Virus record (IMG/VR): IMGVR_UViG_3300027759_000001
Strand: one strand, 5' to 3'
DNA from: a virus
Lineage: Duplodnaviria > Caudoviricetes
DNA: 64,000 nucleotides
A model generated the notes under the pieces. The model worked only from the letters and a program-made list of their open reading frames with translations. It was not told the DNA's origin and searched no databases. How positions within the stretch are numbered: position 1 is the stretch's first letter; the number at the start of each line of letters is the position of its first letter. Below are positions 34,236-56,497 of this stretch, in pieces. The translations under genes were made by a program, and so were the position numbers.

Positions 34236-37200
34236 ATGCCGAATTATCAAAGACTTACGGATAGAGTATTAGCACCAAGTGTGTCTATAAATGATATTTT
34301 ACATATTGTTATTACAGGTGACACATCTCAAAACCCTGCTGGTTCATCTTATAAAGCCACATTAGAACAAGTTGCTTCAGTTATTGGTAGTGTTGGTACA
34401 TCAGGAACAAACGGTACAGATGGTACTTCAGGAACAAGCGGAGTGAATGGAACTTCAGGAACTAACGGATCAAGCGGAGCGAATGGAACTTCAGGAACTA
34501 ACGGTACTTCAGGAACTTCAGGAACTTCAGGGACGAGCGGAACTAACGGAACAAATGGAACGAATGGTACTAACGGAACTAATGGTACTTCAGGAACAAG
34601 CGGAGCAAACGGAACTTCAGGGACTAATGGAACAAGCGGAGCAAACGGAACTTCAGGAACTAATGGTACTAGTGGAACAAACGGAACGTCAGGAACTAAC
34701 GGAACAGATGGGTCTTCAGGTACAAATGGTACAAACGGAACGGATGGTACAAACGGAACTAATGGTACAAACGGAACGGATGGTACAGACGGAACAAGTG
34801 GTACTAATGGGTCTTCAGGGACTAACGGAACAAGTGGTACTAATGGGTCTTCAGGGACTAACGGAACAAGTGGTATATCGGGAGTAAATGGAACATCAGG
34901 TACAAACGGAACTTCAGGAACTAATGGTACAGATGGAACTTCAGGAACAAACGGAACAGACGGAACTTCAGGTACAAATGGAACAGATGGTACTTCAGGA
35001 ACAAACGGGACAGACGGAACTAGCGGAACAAATGGTACGGACGGTACTAACGGAACTAATGGTACGGACGGAACTTCAGGAACTAATGGTACGGACGGAA
35101 CTAACGGAACTAATGGTACGGACGGAACTTCAGGAACAAACGGGACAGATGGTACTTCAGGTACAAATGGTACAGACGGAACTAATGGAACAGATGGTAC
35201 TTCAGGAACTAATGGTACAGACGGAACTTCAGGTACAAATGGAACGGACGGAACTTCAGGTACAAACGGAACTGATGGAAGTAGTGGAACAAACGGAACA
35301 GACGGTACTTCAGGAACAAACGGAACAGACGGTACTTCAGGAACTAACGGAACAGATGGAAGTAGTGGTACAAACGGAACAGACGGTACTTCAGGAACAA
35401 ACGGAACAGACGGTACTTCAGGAACTAACGGAACTGATGGTACTTCGGGAACAAATGGTACTAGTGGAACAAATGGTACGAATGGTACATCAGGTACAAA
35501 TGGTACTTCAGGAACTAATGGTACTAATGGTACTAATGGAACTAACGGAACATCAGGTACCAATGGTACAAGTGGAACTAACGGAACGTCAGGAACAAAT
35601 GGCACAAACGGGACTTCAGGAACTAACGGTACTAATGGTACATCAGGAACAAATGGCACATCGGGAACAAACGGAACATCAGGAACTAACGGAACTGATG
35701 GTACTTCAGGAACTAACGGAACTGATGGGACTTCAGGAACTAACGGAACAGATGGAAGTAGTGGTACAAATGGAACGGATGGAAGTAGTGGTACAAATGG
35801 AACGGATGGGACTTCAGGAACAAATGGTACAGACGGCACTTCAGGAACAAATGGTACTGACGGAACTTCAGGGACAAATGGAACCAACGGTACGGACGGA
35901 ACTAATGGAACAGATGGTACTAGCGGAACAAATGGTACAGATGGAACAAACGGTACGGATGGGACTAGTGGCACAAATGGAACTGATGGTACTTCAGGCA
36001 CAAACGGAACAGACGGCACTTCAGGGACAAATGGTACAAATGGAACTGATGGTACTTCAGGTACAAACGGAACAGACGGCACTTCAGGGACAAATGGTAC
36101 AAATGGAACTGATGGGTCAAGCGGTACAAATGGAACTGATGGATCAAGCGGTACTAATGGAACTGATGGATCAAGTGGTACTAACGGCACTTCAGGAACT
36201 GACGGTACGGATGGGACTAGTGGAACAAATGGTACGGATGGAACTAGTGGAACAAATGGAACTGATGGTTCAAGTGGGACTAATGGAACGGATGGAAGTA
36301 GCGGAACAAATGGTACTGATGGTTCAAGTGGGACTAATGGAACGGATGGAAGTAGCGGAACAAATGGTACTGATGGTACTAGCGGAACAAATGGTACTAA
36401 CGGAACAGATGGAACTAGCGGAACAAATGGTACAGACGGAACTAATGGAACTAATGGTACAGACGGAACTAATGGAACAGATGGAAGTTCTGGAACAAAT
36501 GGAACGGATGGTACTTCAGGCACTAATGGAACGGATGGTACTTCAGGGACAAACGGAACAGATGGTACTTCAGGTACTAATGGAACAGATGGTACTTCAG
36601 GTACTAACGGAACGGATGGTACTTCAGGGACAAACGGAACAGATGGTACTAATGGAACGGATGGTACTAGCGGAACAAACGGAACAGATGGGACTTCAGG
36701 GACTAACGGTACTAATGGAACAAATGGTACTGACGGATCAAGTGGTACTAACGGAACAGATGGTACTTCGGGGACAAATGGAACAGATGGTACTAACGGA
36801 ACGGATGGTACTTCAGGGACAAACGGAACAGATGGTACTTCGGGGACAAATGGAACAGATGGTACTTCAGGGACAAACGGAACAGATGGTACTTCGGGGA
36901 CATCACCCTTAATTTGTACTCCATTCTTATCGGGAGATTATTATTTTCAATCGGTAGGCTCAATATACAACGGACCTTCATATCCAAATATGGCATGGGG
37001 TCCTGGTCAAACATTAAGTGTATACGCACCTGAAGGTGTTATAGAATATATGTTAATTACAGGTTATACCGCATCAACAGGTGCGATATCTGCGGTTATC
37101 ACATATTGTTCAAATGTTAATTACAAAACAACATCGGGTGTTAATCTTTGTCTTGTAGGTGAACAAGGAACATCTGGCACAAATGGTACTTCAGGGACAA

Positions 37201-40200
37201 ACGGAACAGATGGTACTAATGGAACTTCAGGGACTAACGGTACTGATGGTACGAATGGTACAGATGGTACAGATGGTACAGATGGTACTAGTGGTACAAA
37301 CGGTACGGATGGAACTAATGGTACCGATGGTACTAGCGGTACTAATGGAACAGATGGTACTAATGGTACTAGCGGTACTAATGGAACAGACGGAACTTCA
37401 GGTACTAATGGAACGGATGGTAGTTCAGGTACTAATGGTACAGATGGTAGTTCAGGTACTAATGGGACAAACGGTACAGACGGTACTTCAGGAACTAACG
37501 GTACAGATGGAACGTCAGGAACAAATGGTACAGACGGTTCAAACGGAACGGATGGTACTAGCGGAACAAATGGTACAGATGGAACAAGTGGGATATCTGG
37601 AGTAAATGGTACAAGTGGAACAAATGGTACTAACGGAACATCAGGAACTAACGGAACGGATGGTACTTCAGGAACAAACGGTACGGACGGAACCTCAGGA
37701 ACTAATGGTACAGATGGAACTTCGGGGACTAATGGTACAGACGGTACTTCAGGTACTAATGGAACTGACGGATCTTCAGGGACTAATGGAACAGATGGAA
37801 CATCAGGTACAAACGGAACAAATGGTACAAATGGAACAGATGGTTCAAGCGGAACTAATGGTACGGACGGAACTAATGGTACAAATGGAACAGATGGTTC
37901 AAGCGGAACGAATGGTACTGACGGAACAAATGGTACTGACGGAACCTCAGGTACAAACGGTACGGATGGAACTTCGGGTACTAATGGTACAGATGGTACA
38001 AACGGAACAGATGGTTCAAGCGGAACTAATGGTACGGACGGAACTAATGGTACAGATGGTACTAGCGGTACAAATGGTACTGATGGATCAAACGGTACGG
38101 ATGGAACTTCAGGTACTAATGGAACTGACGGAACAAGTGGTACTAATGGAACTTCGGGGACTAATGGAACAAGTGGTATATCGGGGGTAAATGGAACTTC
38201 AGGAACAAATGGTACTTCAGGTACAAATGGTACCAACGGAACAAATGGTACTTCAGGGACAAATGGTACTAACGGGACTTCAGGTACAAATGGTTCTTCA
38301 GGAACTAGCGGTGTTAATGGTATTTCAGGTGGAGCTGTTTATTTCTTTAACGAATCAGTAACACAAACACCATACAAAGAATTTTCACCTATACCGACAT
38401 CAGGGTCACAACAAACAGTTACGGTTACTATTGCGAATGGTGTAACATCAACTATTCAATCATATTTAACACCCTCAACTTATCCGAATGTATCAACCAT
38501 ACCTGCGGGAATTTGGTCTTTCTTCTTACACGCGTATAAAGAAAATAATAACGCATCTTTTGATATTTTTTGTGAAGTTTATTCAAGAACAACAGGTGGA
38601 ACGGAAACTTTATTATTTTCAACAGACCCAGCACCTGTAACAACAAATTCACCAAATCCATCAATGGTATTATCTGATGGATTTCAAGGAGGATTTTCAA
38701 TCAATACAACAGATAGGATATTAGTTAAAGTTCGAGCTACAAATACCTCAAATCAATCACATACAATTACTTTCGTAACCGAAGGTACAACTCATTATTC
38801 ATATGGTCAAACTACGTTAGGTGTAATTAATGGAACTAGCGGTACGAATGGAACCTCAGGTACAAATGGTACGAGCGGAACTAATGGTACTAACGGAACA
38901 TCAGGTACCAACGGAACATCTGGTACTAATGGTACAAACGGAACTAGCGGTACGAATGGTACATCAGGTACGAATGGTACCAACGGAACTAGCGGTACGA
39001 ATGGGACTTCAGGTACGAATGGAACAAATGGTACTTCAGGGACAAATGGTACTAACGGGACTTCAGGAACAAATGGATCAAGTGGAACTAATGGAACTTC
39101 GGGCACTAATGGAACATCGGGAACAAACGGTACGAATGGAACATCAGGTACGAACGGAACAAATGGAACGTCAGGAACAAATGGTACTTCAGGTACAAAT
39201 GGTACCAACGGAACAAACGGTACTTCAGGAACTAATGGTACGGACGGTACTTCAGGAACGAATGGTACTGATGGAACAAATGGTACTAGTGGAACGAATG
39301 GTACTAGTGGAACGAACGGAACCAATGGAACAAACGGTACTAGCGGAACTAACGGTACAAACGGAACTAACGGTACAAACGGAACTAATGGTACAGACGG
39401 AACTAGCGGTACAAATGGAACTAATGGAACTAATGGAACAAACGGAACTTCGGGAACTAATGGAACATCAGGAACTAATGGAACTAATGGAACTAATGGA
39501 ACGTCGGGAACAAATGGTACGAATGGAACTAGCGGTACTAACGGTACATCGGGTACAAATGGAACTAACGGAACATCAGGTACAAATGGTACTAACGGAA
39601 CATCAGGTACTAACGGAACATCAGGTACAAATGGAACCAACGGAACGTCAGGAACAAATGGAACCAACGGTACTAGCGGAACTAACGGGACTAATGGAAC
39701 ATCAGGAACAAACGGAACATCAGGTACAAATGGTACTAGTGGTGTAAGTGGAGCGTCTGGTACTTCAGGAACAAACGGAACAAATGGTACAAACGGAACC
39801 TCAGGAACTAACGGAACAAATGGAACTTCAGGAACAAATGGCACAAACGGAACCTCAGGAACTAACGGAACAAATGGAACTTCAGGAACTAACGGAACTA
39901 ACGGTACAAATGGAACTTCAGGTACAAATGGAACTTCAGGTACGAATGGGACATCAGGAACCAATGGAACCAACGGTACAAACGGAACCTCAGGAACTAA
40001 CGGTACTAATGGATCAAGCGGTACCAACGGGACATCAGGTACGAATGGAACTAATGGGACATCAGGTACGAATGGAACTAATGGGACATCAGGTACGAAT
40101 GGAACTAATGGGACAAACGGAACGTCAGGGACTAATGGTACCAATGGAACTTCAGGTACTAATGGAACAAACGGAACATCAGGAACAAATGGTACCAACG

Positions 40201-41651
40201 GAACATCAGGAACTAACGGGACTAGCGGTACTAATGGAACTAGCGGAACAAATGGTACATCGGGAACAAATGGTACCAACGGTACATCAGGTACGAATGG
40301 TACCAATGGAACTTCAGGAACCAACGGGACAAATGGTACATCGGGGACAAATGGTACATCGGGAACAAATGGTACCAACGGTACATCAGGTACGAATGGA
40401 ACAAACGGTACAAATGGAACTTCAGGTACTAACGGAACCAATGGCACTAATGGTACAAGTGGAACAAATGGAACGAATGGTACTAATGGAACCTCAGGAA
40501 CAAATGGAACTAACGGGACTAATGGAACTTCAGGAACAAATGGAACCAATGGTACGAGCGGAACTAATGGGACGAATGGTACTTCAGGTACAAATGGTAC
40601 GAATGGTACTTCAGGTACAAATGGTACGAATGGAACAAATGGTTCAAGTGGTACTAACGGTACTAACGGTACTAACGGAACTAATGGAACGAACGGAACC
40701 TCAGGTACTAATGGAACATCGGGAACAAATGGAACAAATGGAACAAATGGAACATCAGGGACTAACGGAACGAATGGGACATCAGGAACCAATGGAACTT
40801 CTGGAACTAACGGTACGAATGGTACTAACGGAACCTCAGGTACCAACGGAACAAATGGTACTTCAGGTACGAACGGAACTAACGGAACATCAGGAACAAA
40901 CGGTACAAATGGTACAAATGGTACAAATGGTACAAACGGAACAAATGGTACTTCGGGAACAAACGGTACTTCAGGAACGAATGGTACTAACGGAACTTCA
41001 GGAACAAATGGTACCAACGGAACAAATGGTACCAACGGAACTAATGGAACCTCAGGGACTAATGGAACTAACGGAACAAATGGTACCAATGGAACCTCAG
41101 GTACTAACGGAACTAACGGAACTAACGGAACAAATGGTACGAGCGGAACTAATGGTACAAACGGAACATCAGGAACAAATGGAACATCAGGAACGAACGG
41201 TACAAGCGGATCATCACCTGTAGTACCAGGATTAGATAATGAAGTATTAACGTCAGACGGTTCGGGTAATATAGTTGCGGAAACTGATTTTACATATAAC
41301 GGTACTGATAATATATTAACACTAACAAGAAGTTACGATAAGGTTAATACTAAAACGGCAACAAATATTTCAACAACAACAACCATTGACTCATTTACAA
41401 CTAACTTTGGATGTTCGGCAATATTTGAATATTGTATAACAAGTACTAGTGGTCGTAAACGTATGGGTCAAGTATTTGCAACTTGGGACAATACAAGTGC
41501 GGTATTTACAGATATTTCATCCCCCGATTTAAATGCATCAACTGCTGCAGTAACTTGGAAAGTAAGTGTAGTATCGGGTAATGTTGAGTTAGTTGCTAAC
41601 ATTAGTGGTGCTACTTGGGACATATTAGTTGCAACAAGAATCATATTCTAA
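34236..41651 (+). CDS. giant Gly-X-Y (GTN/GTS/GTD) repeat fibre protein 1, 2471 aa
   Basis: Three in-register G-X-Y blocks separated by two globular domains; fibre-like terminal domains. Confidence 0.85.
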   Translation: MPNYQRLTDRVLAPSVSINDILHIVITGDTSQNPAGSSYKATLEQVASVIGSVGTSGTNGTDGTSGTSGVNGTSGTNGSSGANGTSGTNGTSGTSGTSGTSGTNGTNGTNGTNGTNGTSGTSGANGTSGTNGTSGANGTSGTNGTSGTNGTSGTNGTDGSSGTNGTNGTDGTNGTNGTNGTDGTDGTSGTNGSSGTNGTSGTNGSSGTNGTSGISGVNGTSGTNGTSGTNGTDGTSGTNGTDGTSGTNGTDGTSGTNGTDGTSGTNGTDGTNGTNGTDGTSGTNGTDGTNGTNGTDGTSGTNGTDGTSGTNGTDGTNGTDGTSGTNGTDGTSGTNGTDGTSGTNGTDGSSGTNGTDGTSGTNGTDGTSGTNGTDGSSGTNGTDGTSGTNGTDGTSGTNGTDGTSGTNGTSGTNGTNGTSGTNGTSGTNGTNGTNGTNGTSGTNGTSGTNGTSGTNGTNGTSGTNGTNGTSGTNGTSGTNGTSGTNGTDGTSGTNGTDGTSGTNGTDGSSGTNGTDGSSGTNGTDGTSGTNGTDGTSGTNGTDGTSGTNGTNGTDGTNGTDGTSGTNGTDGTNGTDGTSGTNGTDGTSGTNGTDGTSGTNGTNGTDGTSGTNGTDGTSGTNGTNGTDGSSGTNGTDGSSGTNGTDGSSGTNGTSGTDGTDGTSGTNGTDGTSGTNGTDGSSGTNGTDGSSGTNGTDGSSGTNGTDGSSGTNGTDGTSGTNGTNGTDGTSGTNGTDGTNGTNGTDGTNGTDGSSGTNGTDGTSGTNGTDGTSGTNGTDGTSGTNGTDGTSGTNGTDGTSGTNGTDGTNGTDGTSGTNGTDGTSGTNGTNGTNGTDGSSGTNGTDGTSGTNGTDGTNGTDGTSGTNGTDGTSGTNGTDGTSGTNGTDGTSGTSPLICTPFLSGDYYFQSVGSIYNGPSYPNMAWGPGQTLSVYAPEGVIEYMLITGYTASTGAISAVITYCSNVNYKTTSGVNLCLVGEQGTSGTNGTSGTNGTDGTNGTSGTNGTDGTNGTDGTDGTDGTSGTNGTDGTNGTDGTSGTNGTDGTNGTSGTNGTDGTSGTNGTDGSSGTNGTDGSSGTNGTNGTDGTSGTNGTDGTSGTNGTDGSNGTDGTSGTNGTDGTSGISGVNGTSGTNGTNGTSGTNGTDGTSGTNGTDGTSGTNGTDGTSGTNGTDGTSGTNGTDGSSGTNGTDGTSGTNGTNGTNGTDGSSGTNGTDGTNGTNGTDGSSGTNGTDGTNGTDGTSGTNGTDGTSGTNGTDGTNGTDGSSGTNGTDGTNGTDGTSGTNGTDGSNGTDGTSGTNGTDGTSGTNGTSGTNGTSGISGVNGTSGTNGTSGTNGTNGTNGTSGTNGTNGTSGTNGSSGTSGVNGISGGAVYFFNESVTQTPYKEFSPIPTSGSQQTVTVTIANGVTSTIQSYLTPSTYPNVSTIPAGIWSFFLHAYKENNNASFDIFCEVYSRTTGGTETLLFSTDPAPVTTNSPNPSMVLSDGFQGGFSINTTDRILVKVRATNTSNQSHTITFVTEGTTHYSYGQTTLGVINGTSGTNGTSGTNGTSGTNGTNGTSGTNGTSGTNGTNGTSGTNGTSGTNGTNGTSGTNGTSGTNGTNGTSGTNGTNGTSGTNGSSGTNGTSGTNGTSGTNGTNGTSGTNGTNGTSGTNGTSGTNGTNGTNGTSGTNGTDGTSGTNGTDGTNGTSGTNGTSGTNGTNGTNGTSGTNGTNGTNGTNGTNGTDGTSGTNGTNGTNGTNGTSGTNGTSGTNGTNGTNGTSGTNGTNGTSGTNGTSGTNGTNGTSGTNGTNGTSGTNGTSGTNGTNGTSGTNGTNGTSGTNGTNGTSGTNGTSGTNGTSGVSGASGTSGTNGTNGTNGTSGTNGTNGTSGTNGTNGTSGTNGTNGTSGTNGTNGTNGTSGTNGTSGTNGTSGTNGTNGTNGTSGTNGTNGSSGTNGTSGTNGTNGTSGTNGTNGTSGTNGTNGTNGTSGTNGTNGTSGTNGTNGTSGTNGTNGTSGTNGTSGTNGTSGTNGTSGTNGTNGTSGTNGTNGTSGTNGTNGTSGTNGTSGTNGTNGTSGTNGTNGTNGTSGTNGTNGTNGTSGTNGTNGTNGTSGTNGTNGTNGTSGTNGTNGTSGTNGTNGTSGTNGTNGTSGTNGTNGTNGSSGTNGTNGTNGTNGTNGTSGTNGTSGTNGTNGTNGTSGTNGTNGTSGTNGTSGTNGTNGTNGTSGTNGTNGTSGTNGTNGTSGTNGTNGTNGTNGTNGTNGTSGTNGTSGTNGTNGTSGTNGTNGTNGTNGTNGTSGTNGTNGTNGTNGTSGTNGTNGTNGTNGTSGTNGTNGTSGTNGTSGTNGTSGSSPVVPGLDNEVLTSDGSGNIVAETDFTYNGTDNILTLTRSYDKVNTKTATNISTTTTIDSFTTNFGCSAIFEYCITSTSGRKRMGQVFATWDNTSAVFTDISSPDLNASTAAVTWKVSVVSGNVELVANISGATWDILVATRIIF
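34386..36905 (+). repeat. G-X-Y block 1 (280 triplets)
   Basis: 2520 nt, Gly every third residue. Confidence 0.95.
37158..38336 (+). repeat. G-X-Y block 2 (131 triplets)
   Basis: 1179 nt. Confidence 0.95.
38832..41216 (+). repeat. G-X-Y block 3 (265 triplets)
   Basis: 2385 nt. Confidence 0.95.
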
Positions 41652-41767: not shown

Positions 41768-44700
41768 ATGGCAAATGAATTCATAGCCCGTAATGGGGTC
41801 AAATCATTAGGTGGTGTTACATTTCCATATACTGGAGTGAGCACCACATACACAATTAATTCGGATAATTATCTAATTGATTGTACTAGCGGGACATTTA
41901 ATGTCACCCTTCCAACTTCTGCAGGTATTGCAGGACAAATCTTTGTAATTAAAAATAGTGGATCAGGAACAATAACTCTTGCAACAACAGGAGGTCAAAC
42001 TATAGATGGAAGTTCAACAAAAACATTAACACAATATGGATCAATAACCGTACAAAGTGACGGTTCAAATTGGGATATTGCGGGATCTGACGGAACGTCA
42101 GGAACTAACGGCACTAGCGGAACATCAGGAACAAATGGTACCAACGGTACTAATGGAACATCAGGTACAAATGGAACTAACGGTTCAAGTGGAACTAACG
42201 GTACAAATGGGACATCGGGAACCAATGGAACTAACGGTACAAACGGTACTTCAGGAACAAATGGTACAAATGGAACAAACGGAACGTCAGGTACAAACGG
42301 TACTAGCGGAACGAATGGTACTAACGGAACAAATGGTACGAGTGGAACTAACGGAACTAATGGTACATCAGGTACAAATGGTACTTCAGGAACTAATGGG
42401 ACTAACGGAACTTCAGGAACTAATGGTACTTCAGGAACTAACGGTACGAATGGAACTAATGGGACTTCAGGTACGAATGGTACTAATGGAACATCAGGGA
42501 CTAACGGAACAAATGGAACTTCAGGTACTAATGGAACTAATGGTACTAATGGAACTTCAGGTACTAATGGAACTAATGGTACTAATGGAACGTCGGGTAC
42601 TAATGGAACCAACGGAACATCGGGAACCAATGGGACTAACGGTACAAATGGAACATCAGGTACAAATGGAACATCAGGTACAAATGGAACTAACGGATCT
42701 TCAGGAACCAATGGAACTAATGGTACAAACGGAACTAGCGGTACGAATGGAACTTCAGGAACAAATGGAACATCAGGAACTAACGGCACAAATGGTACTA
42801 ATGGATCATCAGGAACTAATGGAACGTCAGGAACAAATGGAACCAACGGTACAAATGGTACTTCAGGAACTAACGGAACAAATGGTACAAATGGAACTTC
42901 AGGGACTAACGGAACTTCAGGAACTAATGGTACCAACGGAACATCGGGTACTAATGGAACTAATGGTACTAACGGAACAAATGGAACATCGGGTACTAAC
43001 GGGACTAATGGTACAAACGGAACTTCAGGAACTAACGGAACAAATGGTACGAGTGGGACCAATGGAACTAACGGTACTTCAGGAACTAACGGAACAAATG
43101 GTACGAGTGGGACCAATGGAACAAATGGTACTTCAGGAACTAATGGTACGAGCGGGACTAATGGAACAAATGGAACATCAGGTACTAACGGTACAAACGG
43201 TACTTCAGGAACGAATGGAACTTCAGGTACTAATGGAACTAATGGTACAAACGGAACATCAGGAACCAACGGTACAAATGGTACCAACGGAACTAGCGGA
43301 ACAAATGGAACTAACGGAACTAACGGAACATCAGGTACTAATGGAACTAATGGAACATCAGGAACAAATGGTACCAACGGAACTAGCGGAACAAATGGGT
43401 CTTCAGGTACGAATGGTACCAACGGAACTAGCGGTACAAATGGAACAAATGGAACTAACGGTACAAATGGCACGAGTGGGACCAATGGAACAAACGGTAC
43501 TTCAGGTACAAATGGAACTAATGGTACAAATGGAACAAATGGTACGAGCGGGACTAATGGAACTTCAGGTACAAACGGAACATCAGGAACGAATGGAACT
43601 AATGGAACTAATGGAACTTCAGGTACAAACGGAACCTCAGGAACGAATGGAACTAATGGAACTTCAGGTACTAACGGAACCTCAGGAACAAATGGTACGA
43701 ATGGATCATCAGGTACAAACGGAACGAATGGAACATCAGGAACAAATGGTACCAACGGAACTAGCGGAACAAACGGTACTTCAGGAACAAACGGTACTTC
43801 AGGAACGAATGGTACCAACGGAACTAGCGGTACTAATGGAACAAGCGGCACAAATGGAACGAATGGTACAAATGGAACCAACGGAACATCAGGTACCAAC
43901 GGAACTAATGGTACAAACGGAACTAGCGGACTTTCTGGTGTTGATGGTACTGATGGAACATCAGGAACAAACGGAACTAGCGGAACTAATGGTACCTCAG
44001 GAACAAGAGGAACTAGCGGAACAAATGGTACAAATGGTACCAACGGAACTAGCGGAACAAATGGTACCAACGGAACAAATGGTACTAATGGAACTTCGGG
44101 AACAAATGGCACAAATGGTACTTCAGGAACAAATGGTACTAACGGAACCTCAGGTACTAATGGGACTTCAGGAACTAATGGAACAAATGGCACATCAGGA
44201 ACAAATGGTACTAACGGAACTTCAGGTACAAATGGAACATCTGGGACAAACGGTACAAATGGTACTAACGGAACATCAGGAACGAATGGTACAAATGGAA
44301 CTTCAGGAACGAATGGTACAAACGGAACTAATGGAACAAATGGAACGAATGGAACCTCAGGTACGAATGGTACTTCAGGAACGAATGGAACTAACGGTAC
44401 TAATGGAACTAGCGGTACAAATGGTACGAACGGAACTAGCGGTACAAATGGTACTTCGGGAACAAATGGAACAAACGGAACTTCAGGTACAAATGGTACT
44501 AACGGAACTTCAGGTACAAATGGAACATCTGGGACAAACGGTACAAATGGTACTAACGGAACATCAGGAACAAATGGTACAAATGGAACTTCAGGAACGA
44601 ATGGTACAAACGGAACTAGCGGGACTAATGGAACTTCAGGAACGAATGGTACAAACGGAACTAATGGAACAAATGGAACGAATGGAACCTCAGGTACTAA

Positions 44701-47700
44701 CGGAACGAACGGAACATCAGGAACTAATGGAACCAATGGTACAAATGGAACAAATGGCTCAAGTGGTACAAACGGAACTTCAGGTACTAACGGAACATCG
44801 GGTACAAACGGAACTAACGGCACTTCAGGTACTAATGGAACTAGCGGTACTAACGGAACAAATGGAACTTCAGGAACAAATGGTACTAACGGAACGAATG
44901 GTACGAGCGGGACCAATGGTACATCAGGGACAAACGGAACGAATGGAACTAATGGCACTAGCGGTACAAATGGAACAAATGGTACTAACGGGACAAATGG
45001 TTCAAGTGGAACTAATGGAACTTCGGGCACTAACGGAACAAACGGTACTAGCGGAACGAATGGTACTAGCGGAACGAATGGAACAAATGGAACGTCAGGA
45101 ACTAATGGTACGAACGGAACAAATGGTACATCAGGTACTAATGGAACTAGCGGAACGAATGGTACAAATGGAACTAGCGGTACCAACGGGACTAATGGTA
45201 CAAACGGAACTTCAGGTACCAACGGAACTAATGGTACTAGCGGAACTAATGGTACTAACGGAACATCGGGAACGAATGGGACAAATGGAACTTCAGGTAC
45301 AAACGGAACATCAGGGACTAATGGAACAAATGGAACTAGCGGTACGAATGGAACCAATGGTACAAATGGTACTTCAGGAACTAATGGTACTAATGGAACG
45401 AACGGAACCAATGGTACGTCAGGGACAAATGGAACTTCAGGCACAAACGGGACTAACGGATCATCAGGGACCAATGGAACGAATGGTACAAGCGGTACTA
45501 ACGGAACTAGTGGGACAAACGGAACAAATGGTTCAAGTGGTACCAACGGTACTAATGGTACTAGCGGTACGAATGGAACTAGCGGTACAAACGGAACATC
45601 GGGAACGAATGGTACTAACGGTACAAATGGTACTTCAGGGACAAACGGAACAAATGGTACTAGTGGAACTAATGGAACCAACGGTACTAGCGGAACAAAC
45701 GGAACTAGCGGAACAAACGGAACCTCAGGAACAAATGGAACAAATGGTACTAGCGGAACTAATGGAACGTCAGGAACTAACGGAACAAATGGTTCAAGTG
45801 GAACCAACGGTACGAATGGTACTTCAGGTACAAATGGAACTAGCGGCACAAATGGAACTAACGGAACTAGCGGTACTAATGGTACTTCAGGAACAAATGG
45901 CACAAACGGAACTAATGGAACAAATGGTTCAAGTGGTACCAACGGTACAAATGGAACATCCGGAACTAATGGTACTTCAGGGACAAACGGAACAAACGGT
46001 ACGAATGGTACTAACGGAACAAGTGGAACTAACGGAACAAGTGGGACGAATGGTACTAATGGAACATCAGGAACCAACGGAACTTCTGGAACTAATGGAA
46101 CAAATGGTACTAGTGGAACTAACGGTACTAATGGTTCAAGTGGAACGAATGGTACTAATGGAACTTCAGGTACTAACGGTACTAATGGAACATCAGGAAC
46201 AAACGGAACTTCGGGAACCAATGGAACAAACGGTACATCAGGTACTAACGGAACAAGTGGGACGAATGGTACTAATGGAACTAGCGGAACGAATGGAACA
46301 TCAGGTACGAATGGTACAAACGGAACTTCGGGTACAAACGGAACATCGGGTACGAATGGAACGTCAGGAACGAACGGAACCAATGGCACATCGGGAACTA
46401 ATGGTACTAATGGTACATCAGGGACGAATGGAACAAATGGTACTAACGGAACTAGCGGAACAAACGGAACTAGCGGAACGAATGGTACGAACGGATCTTC
46501 AGGCACTAATGGTACATCGGGGACAAATGGAACCAACGGTACAAATGGAACTAATGGAACCAACGGGACTTCAGGCACAAATGGGACTAGCGGAACGAAT
46601 GGAACTAACGGAACGTCAGGTACAAATGGAACAAACGGAACTAATGGTACTAACGGTACAAGTGGTACAAATGGAACCTCAGGTACAAATGGAACAAACG
46701 GAACTAATGGTACTAACGGTACAAGTGGTACAAATGGGACTTCAGGTACAAACGGTACGAATGGTACTAACGGAACATCAGGTACAAACGGTACTAATGG
46801 TACTAGCGGTACGAATGGAACTAACGGCACATCAGGGACTAACGGAACTTCAGGTACGAATGGAACAAATGGTACGAGCGGGACCAATGGAACTAACGGA
46901 ACTTCAGGTACGAATGGAACATCAGGAACTAACGGAACTAGCGGAACGAATGGTACAAATGGAACTAGCGGAACAAATGGAACATCAGGTACAAATGGTA
47001 CCTCAGGAACAAGAGGAACTAGCGGAACAAATGGTACAAACGGAACCAATGGTACGAGCGGAACAAATGGAACTAATGGAACATCAGGAACTAACGGAAC
47101 ATCCGGTACGAATGGAACAAATGGTTCAAGCGGAACTAACGGAACTAACGGATCATCAGGTACAAACGGAACTTCGGGAACCAATGGTACAAACGGTACA
47201 TCAGGAACTAATGGAACTTCAGGTACAAATGGAACTAACGGTACTAATGGTACGTCAGGTACAAATGGAACCAATGGTACATCAGGTACTAACGGAACTT
47301 CAGGTACTAATGGAACTAATGGTACTAATGGAACAAACGGTACTTCAGGAACAAATGGAACGAATGGTACTAACGGAACTAGTGGAACAAATGGTACTAA
47401 CGGAACAAACGGTACGAATGGGACTTCAGGAACTAACGGCACAAGCGGGACAAATGGTACTAACGGTACAAGCGGGACAAATGGAACGTCAGGAACTAAT
47501 GGTACGAACGGAACAAATGGTACATCAGGTACTAATGGAACTAGCGGAACGAATGGTACAAATGGATCTTCAGGAACAAATGGAACAAATGGATCTTCAG
47601 GAACAAATGGAACAAATGGAACAAATGGATCTTCAGGAACAAATGGAACAAATGGATCTTCAGGTACGAACGGCACATCAGGAACTAATGGTACAAATGG

Positions 47701-48700
47701 TACTTCAGGAACAAATGGTACTTCAGGAACAAATGGTACGAGCGGGACCAATGGAACAAATGGAACCAATGGAACCAATGGAACATCAGGTACTAATGGC
47801 ACTTCAGGTACCAACGGTACAAATGGTACCAACGGAACTAGCGGCACAAATGGTACTAATGGATCATCAGGTACTAACGGAACTTCAGGGACAAATGGCA
47901 CTAACGGAACATCAGGAACCAACGGTACAAATGGAACTTCAGGTACAAATGGCACTAATGGTACTAGCGGAACAAACGGTACAAATGGATCATCAGGTAC
48001 GAATGGAACTTCAGGTGTTAGTGGAGCGTCAGGTACTTCAGGTACTAATGGTACAAATGGATCATCAGGAACTAACGGAACATCGGGTACTAATGGAACA
48101 GGATTTAATTCAATATCACCAACAACAGATAATAATGTGTTAACTGCTAATGGAACCGCAAATTCAGCGAACTCAGAACCAAACTTAACATTCAATGCTT
48201 CAACAAACTTATTAACAGTAACGGGTAATGAAACTGTTAGTGGTATTTTAACTAGTCAATCTTCGGGATCATTAGTTGCAAATGGTAAATGGTCTTTAAT
48301 GGGTAACCCTACAACTTTGTTAACCTCAAATAGTTATTATGGTGAAGTCGTAACATTTGGGGGGGCAGGTGCAACCACCCAATTTTATATGTATTATTGG
48401 TCTAGTGGAAGTACGTGGGAACTTACTGACGCCAACGCGGCGGCAACATCAAGGGGGTTAATATCAATGGCAATAGATACTAGTTTCAGTGGAGGGATGA
48501 TGTTAAGAGGATATGTATATAATTCAACATGGAACTGGACACCAGGAGCAACATTATATTTAAGTGCCTCTGGCGCTGCCGGGGTTATAACATCAACACA
48601 ACCTTCAGGTAGTGCGGATATTGTAAGAGTTGTTGGATATGCCATTAGTGCCGATTTAATTTACTTTAATCCTTCGCAAGATTGGATTGAGTTAGCATAA
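41768..48700 (+). CDS. giant Gly-X-Y (GTN/GTS) repeat fibre protein 2, 2310 aa
   Basis: N-terminal tail-fibre-type domain (VTLP...G...IKN...TIDG...SDGSNW), one uninterrupted G-X-Y block, globular C-terminus. Confidence 0.85.
42083..48094 (+). repeat. G-X-Y block (668 triplets)
   Basis: 6012 nt in register. Confidence 0.95.
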
Positions 48701-48711: not shown

Positions 48712-49551
48712 ATGGCAATAATAACTAAATTAAATGACGTTTTATGTGTTAACATTTCAAAAATTGATAATGTTTTAAAAAGTAATGCGAAATTTTTTGA
48801 TGATAATACTTTTTGCCCAACACCAACACCTACACCAACAACTCCAGTTGGGACACCAACACCAACACCTACAAGAACATTAACTCCAACACCAACATTA
48901 ACAAGAACATTAACTCCAACACCAACAAATACACCTACATTAACTCAGACATTAACTCCAACACCAACAAATACACCTACATTAACTCAGACATTAACTC
49001 CAACTCCAACAAATACACCAACATTAACTCAGACATTAACTCCAACTCCAACAAATACACCAACATTAACAAGAACATTAACTCCAACTCCAACAAATAC
49101 ACCTACATTAACAAGAACATTAACACCAACGCCAACAAATACTCCTACATTAACAAGAACATTAACTCCAACACCAACAAATACTCCTACATTATCACAA
49201 ACATTAACTCCAACTCCAACAAATACGCCAACACCAACACAAAGATTAAGTTCAACGCCAACACCAACACCAACTCCAACTCTAACACCAACTACACCAT
49301 GTGGTAAAGATTGTTGTTATATAGAACTTTGTTATAGTACAATTGACTGTACGGACGCTTGTCAATGTAATCAAACTGTTAATGTATACCTATCTATTTG
49401 TAAATATACCGCATGTAGATTATCAAACGCATTTGGAATATTTGTAGATGACTCATGTACAACACCTGCGGCAGATGGTTACTATTCTAATACTGTTGAT
49501 TGTTATTATTGGGATGGGTCTTCCTCTTTAACATATCAAGGTCCTTGTTAA
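48712..49551 (+). CDS. Pro-Thr mucin-like putative virion protein with Cys-rich C-terminal domain
   Basis: Short N-terminal domain, ([12 protein letters not shown]) repeats, C-terminal domain with about 9 Cys. Confidence 0.85.
48901..49236 (+). repeat. 8 x 42-nt tandem repeat (T[RQ][12 protein letters not shown])
   Basis: Units start at 48901, 48943, 48985, 49027, 49069, 49111, 49153, 49195. Confidence 0.95.
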
Positions 49552-49586: not shown

Positions 49587-52500
49587 TTATTTTCTGTTAT
49601 CTATATAGAGGATTACTTCACTGTAGTACTCAATAAAATGGTCATTCCACAGATCCCATTTAATATTAACTCCATCCACAGAGAAAACTTGTATGTTATC
49701 AAACTGAGTTAAGATATTATCTCTAAAGTTTCTAAATTCTACTTTATGTTCTGGTGTTCTTAAATGCCATTCACCAACAATTTTTTTAACATTTTTTTTA
49801 ATGAAATCTAAATTTTCGGGTTTAAACATTTCGTATTCACCACCCTCACAATCTGTTTTAACAAAATCAATTCTATTTAATCCGTAAAGTTTAATAAACT
49901 TATCAAATGTAATAGACTCCATATGTGTTTCACCTCCAAATAATTGGTCGTGTTCAATCACACCATTAAAATTTGAAAGTCCTTTATTAATGTGAGTTAC
50001 AGGATGACCCAATGTATTTCTAATTAATGTTGTGAATTCACTTTCACTTGGTTCAATACAAAATACGTGTTTTGGTTTTTTATGTAGGATTGAATATGTA
50101 AAAGGACCAACACTTGATCCAATATCTAAAACGATATCCCCTTCTTCTACTTCAAAGAATTGTTCGTATAATCTCTGTTCAAATATTTCATTATACATTG
50201 CGTGTTTGTGATAATTACCATTATCGTCACCATTATTCATCCATCCCCAATCAAACTTAGGTAATGGATTACTATTGAGTAATTTATTGATTTCACCAAT
50301 AACGACTTCCGAAGTAATTTCTTTTGTACATTCAAACATCCGATCCGTATTCTTATGTAGTGGACACCAATTCCAATCACCGGCATCTAATCTATCTGAG
50401 TTAAAACATCCGTGACAAACACTTTCATTAATAACTCTATATGTATCTAATGTTGTTTCCGCCCATTTTTCACTAAATCCTGAAATCAAAACGACAGGTA
50501 ATTTACAAGCCCAAGCCAACCAAGATAATCCTGATCCGAGACCAATAAAGAACTCACATTCGGATAGGTCGTCAATTACTTCTTGTAAGTTACCTCCTTT
50601 AAAAATGGTTACACCTTTAGGGTAATGGTTATTCATGTATCCGTCACCTTCTTTAGAGTAGATCATACATTCATAACCTAAAGTATTAAGGTGGTCAACA
50701 ACTGCTTGCCATCCGTCAGGGTTGTTCCAATATTTTGATTGTGCGGTTGAGTGAAACCCAATACCAACTTTTTTCTTTTTAGGTGTGTTAGGTAATTTTA
50801 ATAGTGGTCTAACTTCTTCATAATCTAAACCTAAGATATCCGTTGCCGTTTTTTGTAATGGCATTTTCTTAAAATCAAATGGGTGTTTGTTATTATCGTA
50901 AACCCCTTCACTTGTATAATGCCAACCTAACCTATATTGTGCGTGTATATTAGTTACCAATTCACCAGGTTCAACAAACTCAATATCAGGGTATTGATCT
51001 TTAAATAAACTATTAAGGAAGGTTGATACTATAAGTTGGCAACCATGTTTTTTTCTAAATACCTCACAATAAGGAACCCAAGCCATTGTGTCACCTAATG
51101 ATTTTGATCCAAAAGAAATATATACTCTCTTATCTTTTAGATCTAATGTCTCATCATAAATTACTTCACCATTTTCTTCTACGGTTGTTCTCCATTTAAT
51201 AAAGTATTCTTTATTTAATTTAACCCAACTATTGATTGGTAATTCATTTTGATATGATATTTCATTTTTATCATCATAATATTTAATATTCAATTTGTTT
51301 TCTGTTGTCCCTTGTACTTCAAAATAAGGTTGGGTAACATAATGTCTAACAAAAGTATAATCTTTGGTTAATGGTTTGTTTTGGGTAATGTTAAGATTTG
51401 TAACTGCGTTATAAAAATTCAATAAATCTTCACCAAATGTATTATCGGGTAATATTTTATAAACATCTTTATTTTCAATAAGTTCAACCAATTGTTTTGA
51501 TATGGTTTTAACATCACCTTCTATTGGTGTTATATATCCATTAAACATACCCATGTATTGTGGTAAATCTCTTGTAAGGATTTTCATTCCATAATTGATA
51601 GATTCTCTAACAACCAACGGATTACATTCCCAAGTTGAGTTAAACATTAATACATCACAAGCCATCATGAATTTTTCAACGTCATTACGCTCACCCCATA
51701 CTTTTACGTTTGATGGTAAATTATTCATTATTGGACCCCAATAGTCTTCAAAGTTTGGAGCTTGGTTCCCAATAAAATGAAATTGGATGTCAGGGTTTGA
51801 TTCAATTAATTCTCTTGCAACCTCAACCCCTTCACCTTGATTTTTACCACTTGTCCATAACCCAACATTAAGTACGTGAGTTTTAAACATATCCAAACCA
51901 AGTTCTTCTCTTACTACAGTTTTTTTAATTAATGGGACTTGATTAAAATCACCATATATTTCATACTCCTCTAAAATTTTAGTTACCTTATTCTCAATTG
52001 GGTATAACGATAAAAACTTCATTGGTGTTTCATTTAAAAACGTTTCCTTTAAATGATAAGGGGTGACAAAACAATATGATTCAGGATTGAACTTTTTATG
52101 TGTTTGCGGGTTAAACCAAACATTATGACAAGTCTCAACCATTTTCCAAGTCCTATCATTTGAATAAAGTTGATTTAACAATGGTAGTGGGATTTTATTA
52201 AAACTTTCAAATCCTTCTAACATTTCTTCCGAATGAACAATATCAATATTATTGTTTTTAATAATATCAATTAACTCATATTTTCTTTTTGTGTCAGTTG
52301 TATCACCTAAACTAAAAAAATGACCTTCACCCAATAGATCAATTATTTTATCTCTTTGAACAACATATGTATTACTAAACTGAGAAAACTCAACCAAAAA
52401 TATTTCAATTTGGTCTTTGAATTTTTGAAGTTCTTGAATTCTTTTTAATACGAATTGAGGCATTCCACCTGTTGATAGGTGCGGTGTAAGGTACAATAAT

Positions 52501-53246
52501 TTAATTTTTTTATTCATTTCTTTGTTGTGATTTTTTTTTATTATTTCTTTAGATTTTAATAAATTATATTTTCTTTTTTCATCATCTTCACCCGAAAATA
52601 TTCCTTTATTATGTATTCGGTATATACCTCCAGGAAAATTTAAATACTTTATTTTTCCATAACAAGATATACGGTAGTTAATCCCCCAATCAAGATATGG
52701 TAATTCATACATCCACGGTTCAAATAAATTTTCTATTTTTTTAAAAACTTTACCAAAACCAACATAATTTTTTTCTAAAAGATTATCAGTAGTGACACAA
52801 TCTTTAATATCTAATGAAATTCCCCTCCACTCATCTATTTTAGGTGGTTCTATATGATTTTTATGTTTTAACCATTTTTCTCTATGTCCACAAAACACCA
52901 TGGTAGTATCAATATTATTATCTAAATAATCAACACTTTTTTGTAGAAGATCCATATTATCCCAATAGTCATCACCATCCAATATCGCAATATATTCACC
53001 CTTAGCTTTTGAGTATAAAAATTCAAAATTTTTGGTGGGACCTAAATTTTTATCAGGTTCAAAAAATTTAATCTTTTTATTTAGTTCGGCAATTCTCCTT
53101 ATATGTTGCATGCTTTTATCTGAGGAAAAATCATCTCTAACTAAAATCTCATAATCAAAATTTGTTTTTTGACCTAACGCAGAGATTAAAGCCTGTTCTA
53201 TATATTCCTCAAACATATATGAAACTATAATAACACTAACTTTCAT
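49587..53246 (-). CDS. multidomain enzyme: GT2 + GT4 + autotransporter heptosyltransferase (BAHT/TibC-like) + FkbM-type methyltransferase
   Basis: VSVIIVSY..RDD.S.D..LDGDD; E..PLVVRES..YG; SKSLGD..AW.PY..FRKKH and CHGC..WCP..FEC iron finger; LDIGSSVG..KTDCEGGEY. Confidence 0.85.
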   Translation of the reverse strand: MKVSVIIVSYMFEEYIEQALISALGQKTNFDYEILVRDDFSSDKSMQHIRRIAELNKKIKFFEPDKNLGPTKNFEFLYSKAKGEYIAILDGDDYWDNMDLLQKSVDYLDNNIDTTMVFCGHREKWLKHKNHIEPPKIDEWRGISLDIKDCVTTDNLLEKNYVGFGKVFKKIENLFEPWMYELPYLDWGINYRISCYGKIKYLNFPGGIYRIHNKGIFSGEDDEKRKYNLLKSKEIIKKNHNKEMNKKIKLLYLTPHLSTGGMPQFVLKRIQELQKFKDQIEIFLVEFSQFSNTYVVQRDKIIDLLGEGHFFSLGDTTDTKRKYELIDIIKNNNIDIVHSEEMLEGFESFNKIPLPLLNQLYSNDRTWKMVETCHNVWFNPQTHKKFNPESYCFVTPYHLKETFLNETPMKFLSLYPIENKVTKILEEYEIYGDFNQVPLIKKTVVREELGLDMFKTHVLNVGLWTSGKNQGEGVEVARELIESNPDIQFHFIGNQAPNFEDYWGPIMNNLPSNVKVWGERNDVEKFMMACDVLMFNSTWECNPLVVRESINYGMKILTRDLPQYMGMFNGYITPIEGDVKTISKQLVELIENKDVYKILPDNTFGEDLLNFYNAVTNLNITQNKPLTKDYTFVRHYVTQPYFEVQGTTENKLNIKYYDDKNEISYQNELPINSWVKLNKEYFIKWRTTVEENGEVIYDETLDLKDKRVYISFGSKSLGDTMAWVPYCEVFRKKHGCQLIVSTFLNSLFKDQYPDIEFVEPGELVTNIHAQYRLGWHYTSEGVYDNNKHPFDFKKMPLQKTATDILGLDYEEVRPLLKLPNTPKKKKVGIGFHSTAQSKYWNNPDGWQAVVDHLNTLGYECMIYSKEGDGYMNNHYPKGVTIFKGGNLQEVIDDLSECEFFIGLGSGLSWLAWACKLPVVLISGFSEKWAETTLDTYRVINESVCHGCFNSDRLDAGDWNWCPLHKNTDRMFECTKEITSEVVIGEINKLLNSNPLPKFDWGWMNNGDDNGNYHKHAMYNEIFEQRLYEQFFEVEEGDIVLDIGSSVGPFTYSILHKKPKHVFCIEPSESEFTTLIRNTLGHPVTHINKGLSNFNGVIEHDQLFGGETHMESITFDKFIKLYGLNRIDFVKTDCEGGEYEMFKPENLDFIKKNVKKIVGEWHLRTPEHKVEFRNFRDNILTQFDNIQVFSVDGVNIKWDLWNDHFIEYYSEVILYIDNRK

Positions 53247-54192
53247 TTAATAATTTTATTTCTATAACATTGTGTATGATATTTTTTATTTTTTCTGTTA
53301 TATCCGATGATATTCCATCATAAGATATTACCACATTTTTTATATTGTATGGTTTAAACCCTAAATTAACAATATCCCTATTGGATATATCATAAGAGGT
53401 CTCAACACCATCTACGTTAATTAAAACATTTATTTTTTCTTTGTTATTGTAAAAATATAAACAAACCTCATCATTGTGTACGACATCTTTAACTATAAAA
53501 AAAACTAAACCATTAATGTCGGAGTAGTCAAATAAATTATCGTCTTTATGGAATAATATTAAATCCTCAATTTTTTCTAATTCAATTTTATAATCCATAT
53601 TACTCGTAATTAAAGTATCGTAAAGCCAGTTCTCAACTATACAATTAAATTTAAGGTAACTATCAAAAGTGATCAGATTTGAAAATTTCAATAGGTTTTC
53701 TCTATCTAACGCAATTAAATGTAAACTAACTTTGTGTTCGTGAAATGGATAAAAGTTACATTTTTTATCTGATAAAAAAGTAGAAACCACCGTATTATCA
53801 ATTTCCGTATCATATATAATATGATAATATCTGTCATAGTCATAAGTTAAAGCATATTCAGATAATTTTTTGGTTTGGTAAAGTGCCGCCCACCCATAAT
53901 CAATTAAGGCTCTTTTAATTACAATTTCTTTACCTTTATCCGTATTTTTTACCCATGACATAACAGATTTTTGGGGCCAATAAAGTAATGGATTTTCTTT
54001 TGTTTGTACATAAAAATCACACATATTTATCACATCGGAAGGTAAAGGTAAAGGACTATTTACCATTACATCTAAATTGTGACTTTTAATGGTTTTGATG
54101 GTATTTATCAGAATGTCAATTTTTTCTTTGGTATCACAATAAGAACTTATTAAAACTATCCTCTTATCTTGTAAATTATTTATATTTTCCAT
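53236..54192 (-). CDS. hypothetical protein (possibly GT-A like)
   Basis: 318 aa, co-transcribed with the four-domain enzyme; IIYDTEID motif. Confidence 0.6.
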   Translation of the reverse strand: MENINNLQDKRIVLISSYCDTKEKIDILINTIKTIKSHNLDVMVNSPLPLPSDVINMCDFYVQTKENPLLYWPQKSVMSWVKNTDKGKEIVIKRALIDYGWAALYQTKKLSEYALTYDYDRYYHIIYDTEIDNTVVSTFLSDKKCNFYPFHEHKVSLHLIALDRENLLKFSNLITFDSYLKFNCIVENWLYDTLITSNMDYKIELEKIEDLILFHKDDNLFDYSDINGLVFFIVKDVVHNDEVCLYFYNNKEKINVLINVDGVETSYDISNRDIVNLGFKPYNIKNVVISYDGISSDITEKIKNIIHNVIEIKLLNES

Positions 54193-55222: not shown

Positions 55223-55223
55223 C

Positions 55224-55231
55224 TATTTATA
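55224..55231 (+). promoter_or_regulatory. putative late promoter TATTTATA
   Basis: 3 nt upstream of ATG 55235. Confidence 0.55.
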
Positions 55232-55234
55232 TAT

Positions 55235-55501
55235 ATGGAAACACAATTACAAGAATACAAAAACAGAAAATTTATAATCTTTAATGTCTCAGAATTGAAT
55301 CAGATTGATTTCACTCAGGTATTAGAAACATCAATTGATACTGTTAGAAAATCTGTTGATCAAACAAAAACATTTGTTAAATGGGATGGGGTAACTCCAG
55401 AGTGTGTAAATAATTTAACAACAAAAGAAGGACCTTACACTTATGATGAGATTATTCCAATTTTATTGACAACAGAATGGACGGATCAAAGTGAAATATA
55501 A
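55235..55501 (+). CDS. small phage protein
   Basis: 88 aa; IDF.QV.ETS..T.RKS.D.TKTFVKW pattern. Confidence 0.8.
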   Translation: METQLQEYKNRKFIIFNVSELNQIDFTQVLETSIDTVRKSVDQTKTFVKWDGVTPECVNNLTTKEGPYTYDEIIPILLTTEWTDQSEI

Positions 55502-55541
55502 TTTATCTTTATTTTAATATTTCATATTTTATATTTAACAT

Positions 55542-56468: not shown

Positions 56469-56475
56469 TTAATGA

Positions 56476-56483
56476 TATTTATT
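56476..56483 (+). promoter_or_regulatory. putative late promoter TATTTATT
   Basis: 14 nt upstream of ATG 56498. Confidence 0.6.
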
Positions 56484-56497
56484 GTTAAACAACAATA

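Follow-up and report, generated by a model that had tools for sequence, protein, structure and literature searches.

A four-enzyme phage fusion protein built around a BAHT module and its proposed role in O-glycosylation of collagen-like fibre proteins

We describe a single gene, P0001, lying in a 64,000-nucleotide stretch of DNA from a tailed phage (IMG/VR record IMGVR_UViG_3300027759_000001; this whole stretch is called the window in the following), which encodes in one polypeptide a glycosyltransferase of family GT2, a glycosyltransferase of family GT4, a module of the BAHT family and an FkbM-type methyltransferase. The BAHTs, or autotransporter heptosyltransferases, such as Aah of diffusely adherent Escherichia coli (DAEC) and TibC of enterotoxigenic E. 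coli (ETEC) H10407, are protein O-heptosyltransferases and form a GT9-like family; to our knowledge they have been described only as free-standing enzymes that add heptose to the autotransporter adhesins of Gram-negative pathogens. We propose, with slightly better than even confidence, that P0001 is a soluble cytoplasmic multi-enzyme that equips the phage's own collagen-like fibre proteins with a short methylated O-glycan. In a literature search of incomplete coverage, no paper was found that links BAHTs with phages or with collagen-like proteins.

The first-pass annotation of this DNA had described one minus-strand open reading frame (ORF) with four catalytic modules, and this description holds. 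With the Pfam and NCBIfam profiles at their curated cut-offs, all four modules score above the cut-off and keep their hallmark residues. PF00535 (GT2) matches residues 4-130 with 74.5 bits against a cut-off of 23.3; PF00534 (the C-terminal lobe of GT4) matches residues 446-597 with 36.7 bits against 26.4; TIGR04414, the Aah/TibC equivalog profile, matches residues 655-988 with 288.7 bits against 200 (E = 6.3e-86), the alignment spanning model positions 32-373 of 374; and the FkbM module is matched at residues 1039-1176 both by PF05050 (37.7 bits against 22.7) and by TIGR01444 (40.6 against 37.7). The GT2 module has the DxD-type motif LDGDDYW at residues 89-95. The GT4 part is a complete two-lobe GT-B fold, whose nearest folds are the retaining GT4 enzymes BshA, PimB', HepE, MshA and WaaG, and it keeps K468 together with E540-x7-E548; the methyltransferase has the motifs D1041-x-G-x-x-x-G and D1132-x-E-G-x-E. 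The motifs of all modules except the GT2 DxD were checked in homologues, and those of GT4 (in 49-53 of 52-53 homologues) and of FkbM are conserved there. Judged from these residues, all four modules look active, and by sequence comparison the four-module fusion is confirmed as real, far beyond chance, with hundreds of homologues having the same core.

No membrane-like segment was found in P0001 (maximum Kyte-Doolittle mean over 19 residues, 1.49), and the protein is therefore predicted to be soluble and cytoplasmic. As had also been described, the gene lies on the strand opposite to the genes for the G-X-Y and PT repeats and directly after them; the arrangement is convergent, the PT gene ending at 49551 and the fusion at 49587, and the gap of 35 nucleotides holds a terminator-like hairpin. 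Short exact Logan contigs from one lake metatranscriptome (X15) match the gene at 50006-50288 and 51636-52297; since the RNA library may contain DNA, these contigs are no more than a possible sign of transcription.

The module on which our proposal turns is the third one. That it would match the profile for autotransporter heptosyltransferases and adopt their fold had been suggested before, and both are borne out: besides the TIGR04414 match given above, a phmmer search of PDB sequences finds TibC (4RAP/4RB4) with E = 2e-71 over residues 672-991, and an AlphaFold2 model of residues 245-1219, made from a 95-row alignment (mean pLDDT 92.6), has the BAHT fold. The best 21 Foldseek matches of this model in the PDB are all TibC chains, at 39-42% identity and with TM scores, normalised to TibC, of 0.81-0.84 over about 375-390 columns; since about 380 columns are aligned, the match includes the N-terminal beta-barrel. 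By profile, sequence and predicted fold, the case that the third module is a true BAHT is strong.

The roles of individual residues were taken from the TibC structure paper (PMC4358343). The catalytic base Asp110 of TibC corresponds to D719 in P0001, the beta-phosphate contacts Thr226 and Lys230 to T834 and K838, the heptose O4 contact Trp305 to W909, and the iron ligands Cys339, Cys342, Cys358 and Cys370 correspond one-to-one, by sequence alignment, to C944, C947, C961 and C973. The iron-finger motif is where it had been reported, with CHGC at 50406-50417, WCP at 50361-50369 and FEC at 50328-50336. Two further residues of TibC, Arg286 and Pro300, are not kept, being V890 and G904 in P0001. 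The catalytic Asp and the Trp are invariant across 154 BAHT domains, taken from the 150 nearest cluster representatives; the Lys, the Thr/Ser, the four Cys (the iron-finger Cys being present in 147-148 of the domains) and the Phe that corresponds to TibC Phe368 are near-invariant.

It is also worth considering the oligomeric state. TibC uses its beta-barrel, thumb and iron finger to oligomerise and to bind the protein substrate, and the thumb tip Phe265-Val266 and Phe368, the latter a dodecamer contact, are needed for the dodecamer (PMC4358343). The corresponding residues of P0001 are the hydrophobic pair Y870-M871 and F971, compatible with a dodecamer by residue type; at the thumb pair, Tyr is found in 86 and Met in 94 of the 154 domains. 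A two-copy complex prediction of the BAHT module (residues 626-995) gave a score of 0.00, which says nothing either way on oligomerisation.

The comparison with TibC bears also on a quite different explanation, namely that P0001 remodels a glycan of the host envelope, such as the lipopolysaccharide (LPS) core, the O-antigen or the capsule, as an auxiliary or superinfection-exclusion function, with the proximity to the fibre genes being coincidental. Polysaccharide gene clusters typically contain GT2, GT4, GT9 and FkbM modules, the catalytic core of the BAHT is itself GT9-like, and the window has genes for the tailoring of sugar nucleotides, namely a GT11, a CmcI-like methyltransferase, a PglD-like acetyltransferase and a DegT-like gene. 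However, the same BAHT domain that scores so high on the protein-specific TIGR04414 reaches 18.7 bits on the model of LPS heptosyltransferase I, the beta-barrel, thumb and iron finger are kept, P0001 is without a membrane segment, no Wzx, Wzy, WaaL or oligosaccharyltransferase family was found among the ORFs scanned, and the linkage to collagen-like genes, to which we now turn, survives rearrangement and gene splitting. We regard an envelope function as very improbable.

Two collagen-like genes lie tail-to-tail with the fusion gene, with the PT-repeat gene in between. The first encodes 676 G-X-Y triplets, with X being Thr in 629 and Y being Asn, Ser or Asp, and has 190 T-S-G sites; the second encodes one run of 669 G-X-Y triplets, with X being Thr in 642 and Y being Asn or Ser, and has 203 T-S-G sites. 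In both proteins X is Thr in about 94-96% of the triplets and proline is nearly absent. The 64-kb window holds no autotransporter. PHROGs gave no informative structural annotation for the ends of the collagen-like proteins, the PT protein or the 318-residue ORF upstream of the fusion, except that the N-terminal domain of the second collagen-like protein weakly resembles a baseplate protein.

The linkage of the BAHT gene to a collagen-like gene is conserved. At all 11 of 11 IMG/VR loci (66-95% identity), a GTN/GTS collagen-like gene lies within 10 kb of the BAHT gene, including a 66%-identity group that has a different gene order and strand. In a near-twin of the window phage (G002), in a 343-kb record (G003, IMGVR_UViG_3300044624_002978) and in Microcystis phage Mel-JY01, collagen-profile matches above the cut-off lie beside the BAHT gene, and in the near-complete G002 and G003 these matches are the only ones above the cut-off. 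The pairing is found also in distant contexts with a BAHT identity of 44-59% (Mel-JY01, L027, L030, L032 and L033), where the modules are fused or split. For example, in L027 a GT4-methyltransferase gene is followed after 3 nucleotides by a stand-alone BAHT gene that adjoins two G-T-S fibre genes, and in L032 the order of the separate genes is a GSS/GTS collagen, two ORFs, GT4, FkbM, an unknown gene and BAHT. Moreover, two related T4-like phages without a BAHT are also without a collagen-like gene. The nearest record to the window (G001) is uninformative for co-occurrence, being a fragment (37% complete) that lacks a BAHT, ends in a collagen-like gene and matches P0001 only weakly, in GT2.

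As a matter of annotation, the collagen-like frame of the cultured phage Mel-JY01 (L013, PP395634.1; 2-3052, plus strand), with G-T-S/G-S-S triplets and at least 1016 residues before it is cut by the start of the record, is unannotated; two 'hypothetical' coding sequences are annotated over it on the opposite strand, and the 1226-residue GT4-...-BAHT protein, encoded 1.7 kb away from the collagen-like gene, is labelled only 'methyltransferase FkbM'.

On the basis of the four identified and intact modules, the BAHT fold and the gene linkage, we propose an acceptor, a donor, an order of steps and a virion location as follows. P0001 would be made in the cytoplasm of the infected cell and would act before or during virion assembly. 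By analogy with TibC, the BAHT module would attach the first nucleotide-activated sugar to the Ser of G-T-S triplets, where it stands in the context T-S-G. Further sugars would be added by the GT4 and GT2 modules and by two neighbours, the GT-A-like 318-residue protein and the GT9-like protein, and the FkbM module would O-methylate a sugar. TibC modifies Ser and not Thr, and its two mapped sites in TibA are QN-S-GG and NT-S-AA (PMC4358343); the context [NT]-S-[GA] occurs 191 + 206 = 397 times in the two collagen-like proteins. An assembly line that primes Ser/Thr, extends the glycan and caps it with methyl groups on the virion had been put forward in the first-pass annotation; it is supported in part, by the four real modules, the BAHT fold and the collagen linkage, and by analogy with TibC the priming target would be Ser.

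An alternative is that the fusion modifies other phage proteins, which may be the PT-repeat protein, a (Thr-X)n mucin-like protein, the lectin-headed proteins or the capsid or tail subunits. The island contains several Ser/Thr-rich candidates (48712-49551 and 59337-61502) and several further glycosyltransferases, and capsid and tail-tube subunits of mycobacteriophages are glycosylated, according to the passage of PMC12619734 that cites Freeman et al. 2023. However, the PT and Thr-X proteins are almost Ser-free and have 0 sites of the form [NT]-S-[GA]; since TibC takes Ser and not Thr, the PT protein would be a poor BAHT acceptor. Moreover, the partner that recurs in diverged contexts is the G-[TS]-[SN] collagen-like gene and not the PT protein, and the Thr-X protein adjoins a GT60-like candidate enzyme of its own. 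We therefore consider modification of these other proteins by the fusion quite unlikely, and of the substrates that had been expected beside the fusion, the collagen-like proteins remain the probable ones, by a linkage conserved across diverged phages, whereas the PT protein appears to fit better with the downstream GT60-like gene.

The Thr-X protein (59337-61502, 721 residues) begins with Cys-rich domains, after which (Thr-X)n runs for about 550 residues; it contains 304 Thr and 11 Ser. The gene after it (61565-62812) matches PF11397, the GT60-type polypeptide GlcNAc-transferase-like family, with E = 3.4e-72, and a GT92-like gene follows. The Thr-X protein may thus be the substrate of the GT60-like enzyme, and the island would then hold two separate pairs of substrate and enzyme.

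Several points weigh against the proposal that P0001 glycosylates the collagen-like proteins in the manner of TibC. The known BAHT substrates are beta-helical autotransporter passengers and not collagen-like repeats. A BAHT without any collagen-like gene is found in the huge phage LR756504; an ORF scan found no long collagen-like ORF within 20 kb of the BAHT in LR756501 or LR756504, a short collagen-profile match lying about 5 kb from the BAHT in LR756501. Another context (L034) has poly-Ser proteins in place of the collagen-like ones. The linked cases are also not independent, because the synteny among related phages is partly inherited. As for the donor, Arg286 of TibC contacts the adenine N1 of ADP-heptose and its Ala mutant is inactive, while Pro300 is the determinant of stereoselectivity (PMC4358343); with Val890 and Gly904 at these two positions, the donor of P0001 may differ from that of TibC. 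Finally, no GmhA and no heptose kinase were found in the near-twin G002, which is 99% complete.

The points on the donor would be expected if the enzyme class and the acceptors are as we propose and the donor is not ADP-heptose, i.e., if a hexose or a sugar on another nucleotide carrier is transferred, in which case P0001 would be a protein O-glycosyltransferase with the BAHT fold and no heptosyltransferase. It also fits this alternative that position 286 is V, I or A in all the collagen-linked BAHTs that were examined, and Arg in the two contexts that are not tightly linked to collagen. Against it, Trp305, which contacts the heptose O4, is invariant, and Thr226 and Lys230, which contact the beta-phosphate, are near-invariant; the contact between the Arg and the adenine is itself called weak (PMC4358343); and G003, which has the same core and the same Val at 286, encodes GmhA-like and RfaE-like genes. 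Position 286 is, in addition, labile. Among the 154 domains it is R in 47, V in 38, T in 21, L in 19 and I in 15, and in a FastTree tree of these domains the state of R or non-R changes about 21 times, compared with 34-41 times for shuffled labels, so that the position is no marker of a single clade. That the change from Arg286 to Val marks a single donor-switched clade is therefore rejected. Taken together, we consider this alternative fairly unlikely.

The genes of G003 deserve a closer description. Its GmhA-like gene (119364-119834) scores 188 bits, its RfaE-kinase-like gene (39709-40644) 301 bits and its RfaE-adenylyltransferase-like gene (317823-318215) 107 bits, all below the equivalog cut-offs; the three are scattered over the record, and no GmhB was found in G003. 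The trio looks like a partial phage-borne ADP-heptose pathway, and on this basis a supply of nucleotide-heptose would exist in the lineage. In G002, a small nucleotidyltransferase that matches 25470-25928 of the window has equal TagD-like and RfaE-II-like scores. Heptose is thus a plausible donor, and by analogy with TibC we would modestly favour ADP-heptose over another sugar as the donor of the BAHT module. It is noted, separately, that five metagenomic proteins among the family representatives (P0128, which has three BAHT domains, P0139, P0142, P0189 and P0206) have 2-3 tandem BAHT domains, and that the residue at 286 varies between the copies within a protein.

We now consider how the fusion is distributed. 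A search with full-length P0001 gave 1914 matches at E <= 0.001. Among the best 120 of these 1914, nearly all have the GT4-BAHT-FkbM core of about 975 residues at 60-95% identity, on contigs of up to 390 kb, and the automatic name given by JGI to the relatives of the core is autotransporter O-heptosyltransferases. The GT2 N-terminus is found only in the strain cluster of the window phage itself, at about 97% identity or more; in other relatives the N-terminal module is a class-I methyltransferase, a GT8, a GT8 with a GT25, or a GT-A-like module of 318 residues joined in frame. In the near-twin G002, where the core is 95% identical, the protein reads [318-like]-GT4-BAHT-[318-like]-[Methyltransf_24-like]. 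An exhaustive search with the BAHT domain gave 1466 cluster representatives, with 766 at E <= 1e-30; in the best 150 of the 1466, only about a dozen are of stand-alone size and about 135 are longer than a stand-alone BAHT; the longer ones combine the BAHT with GT4 and FkbM-type modules, all orders being found, or consist of two or three BAHT domains in tandem. As judged from these searches, the GT4-BAHT-methyltransferase core is widespread and its N-terminal module varies, and what is specific to the window is the four-enzyme GT2 variant, the module swap relative to the 95%-identical twin, the GT-A-like 318-residue partner and the residue-level question on the donor.

Our proposal can be extended further, to a reading that we hold to be rather unlikely. 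The BAHT modules may form a TibC-like ring, giving a megadalton fusion machine with up to 48 active sites that would hyper-glycosylate the collagen-like chains during their folding. The dense methylated O-glycan would then replace hydroxyproline in stabilising a proline-free triple helix. The N- and C-terminal modules (GT2, GT8, GT25, class-I methyltransferase and the new GT-A-like fold) differ even between phages with a 95% identical core, and by their swapping each strain would acquire its own glycan 'serotype' on the fibres, with possible effects on host recognition or on the shielding of the virion.

The positions of the modules and of the neighbouring features are collected in Table 1.

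Table 1. Positions in the window of the fusion gene, its modules and neighbouring features
Feature	Position	Strand	Basis or remark
Whole fusion ORF P0001, GT2-GT4-BAHT-FkbM, 1219 residues	49587..53246	-	no internal stops
GT2 (GT-A) module, residues 1-244	52515..53246	-	PF00535 1.2e-20; PDB GT2 matches 5tze, 2z87
GT4 (GT-B, retaining-type) module, residues 245-625	51372..52514	-	PF00534/PF13692; model pLDDT >90
BAHT (TibC/Aah-type) module, residues 626-995	50262..51371	-	TIGR04414; TibC 4rap; Foldseek
Parts of the BAHT module: beta-barrel, catalytic GT9-like core, beta-hairpin thumb (Y870-M871), iron finger	50262..51371	-
Iron-finger Cys4 motif C944-H-G-C947 ... W-C961-P ... F971-E-C973	50328..50417	-
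FkbM-type S-adenosylmethionine (SAM) methyltransferase module, residues 996-1219	49590..50261	-	PF05050, TIGR01444; model pLDDT ~90
Terminator-like hairpin, 9-bp stem then T-run, after the fusion stop codon	49557..49581	-	consensus scan only
Collagen-like protein 1, 2471 residues, proposed acceptor	34236..41651	+	PF01391 E = 4.7e-277
Collagen-like protein 2, 2310 residues, proposed acceptor	41768..48700	+	PF01391 E = 8.9e-277
PT/TxT-repeat protein, 279 residues, Cys-rich C-terminus	48712..49551	+	Thr-rich, almost Ser-free
ORF P0277, 318 residues, GT-A-like fold with C-terminal beta-sandwich	53236..54192	-	model pLDDT 92.6
Stand-alone GT9-like gene, 308 residues	55542..56468	+	PF01075 1.7e-15

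P0001 is recorded on a contig of 291.8 kb, and the genome is about 290 kb. Among the genes of the window are those for a Gp23-type major capsid protein and an S77 prohead protease, the nearest relatives of the capsid protein are in an uncultured 484-kb phage, Microcystis phage Mel-JY01 and Flavobacterium 'immuto' phages, and DNA of the fusion gene is found in lake and freshwater metagenomes from more than 10 studies; the phage is therefore taken to be a freshwater T4-like jumbo phage. The major capsid protein (2763-4592, plus strand) has 609 residues, with the Gp23 domain only at 343-594 and an N-terminal extension of about 340 residues.

The ORF upstream of the fusion, P0277, overlaps with its end the start codon of the fusion by 11 nucleotides and has no Pfam or NCBIfam match. 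The matches of its predicted fold are weak and uniformly GT-A, i.e., GT6, glycogenin and the GT domain of PBCV-1 A64R (2p73), with E of about 3e-4 to 3e-3. A homologue is fused in frame to the N-terminus of GT4-BAHT at two loci (L004 and L005) and is a separate upstream ORF at another (L007). The family is virus-only, with two copies in the G002 protein, and from its modelled fold is a candidate for a new glycosyltransferase family. The GT9-like protein belongs to the heptosyltransferase family and is without beta-barrel or iron finger, matching TIGR04414 and LPS heptosyltransferases weakly; an orthologue of 63-90% identity adjoins the fusion at six loci (L002-L007), and thus in every close relative.

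Further along the plus strand (54251-59181), three consecutive proteins have carbohydrate-binding-type heads (Laminin_G_3, SPRY/fibrinogen-like and L-type lectin-like). The last two have a common N-terminal segment of about 60-115 residues, which matches the same place in relatives and therefore suggests exchangeable heads on a common adaptor. On the minus strand (12573-27204), sugar-tailoring genes are mixed with PhoH, dUTPase and a PolB-exonuclease-like gene; they comprise three GT2 genes, a GT4-like gene, a GT11, a CmcI/Methyltransf_24 methyltransferase, a PhyH-type 2-oxoglutarate (2OG) dioxygenase, a PglD-like acetyltransferase and a small cytidylyl/adenylyltransferase. The DegT-like ORF there (20346-20990, 214 residues) matches about the first 100 of 360 model positions and may be truncated or divergent.

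From the distribution described above, abundant freshwater jumbo phages carry modular multi-enzyme proteins in which the BAHT is the constant core. If our proposal is true, the substrates of BAHTs extend to collagen-like repeats, tailed phages gain a second and mechanistically different case of virion protein glycosylation, and it is suggested how a Gly-Thr-Asn/Ser collagen without proline could be stabilised. The enzymes could moreover serve the glyco-engineering of recombinant collagen-like materials.

In comparison with TibC and Aah, the P0001 module has about 40% identity over the whole enzyme and keeps the catalytic Asp and the Thr, Lys and Trp donor contacts, and, like them, P0001 is cytoplasmic (as predicted) and its gene lies beside that of a highly repetitive surface protein. 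It differs in that the BAHT is one module of a four-enzyme phage polypeptide, in that the neighbour is a proline-free Gly-Thr-Asn/Ser collagen-like protein and no beta-helix autotransporter, and, relative to TibC, in having Val and Gly at the positions of Arg286 and Pro300. The three-domain GT-GT-methyltransferase A064R of PBCV-1 builds the capsid glycan of a chlorovirus. It resembles P0001 as a viral fusion of cytoplasmic glycosyltransferases and a methyltransferase for virion decoration, the latter being proposed for P0001, and this is an analogy of architecture only; by contrast, A064R has no BAHT or GT-B module, and its target is an N-linked glycan on the capsid of a eukaryotic virus. Its GT-A domain is a weak fold match to the neighbouring 318-residue protein. 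Mycobacteriophage glycosyltransferases O-glycosylate the phages' own structural proteins (Freeman et al. 2023, as cited in PMC12619734); as far as that citing account goes, those enzymes are of other families, encoded by separate genes and without a BAHT, and the acceptors are the C-termini of capsid and tail-tube proteins. Finally, BclA of the Bacillus exosporium is a Thr-rich collagen-like surface filament with O-glycans that are thought to aid hydration and stability (PMC8968730); BclA has G-P-T triplets and different glycosyltransferases, whereas in the collagen-like proteins of the window Thr stands at X, Pro is absent from the repeat and the associated enzyme is a BAHT.

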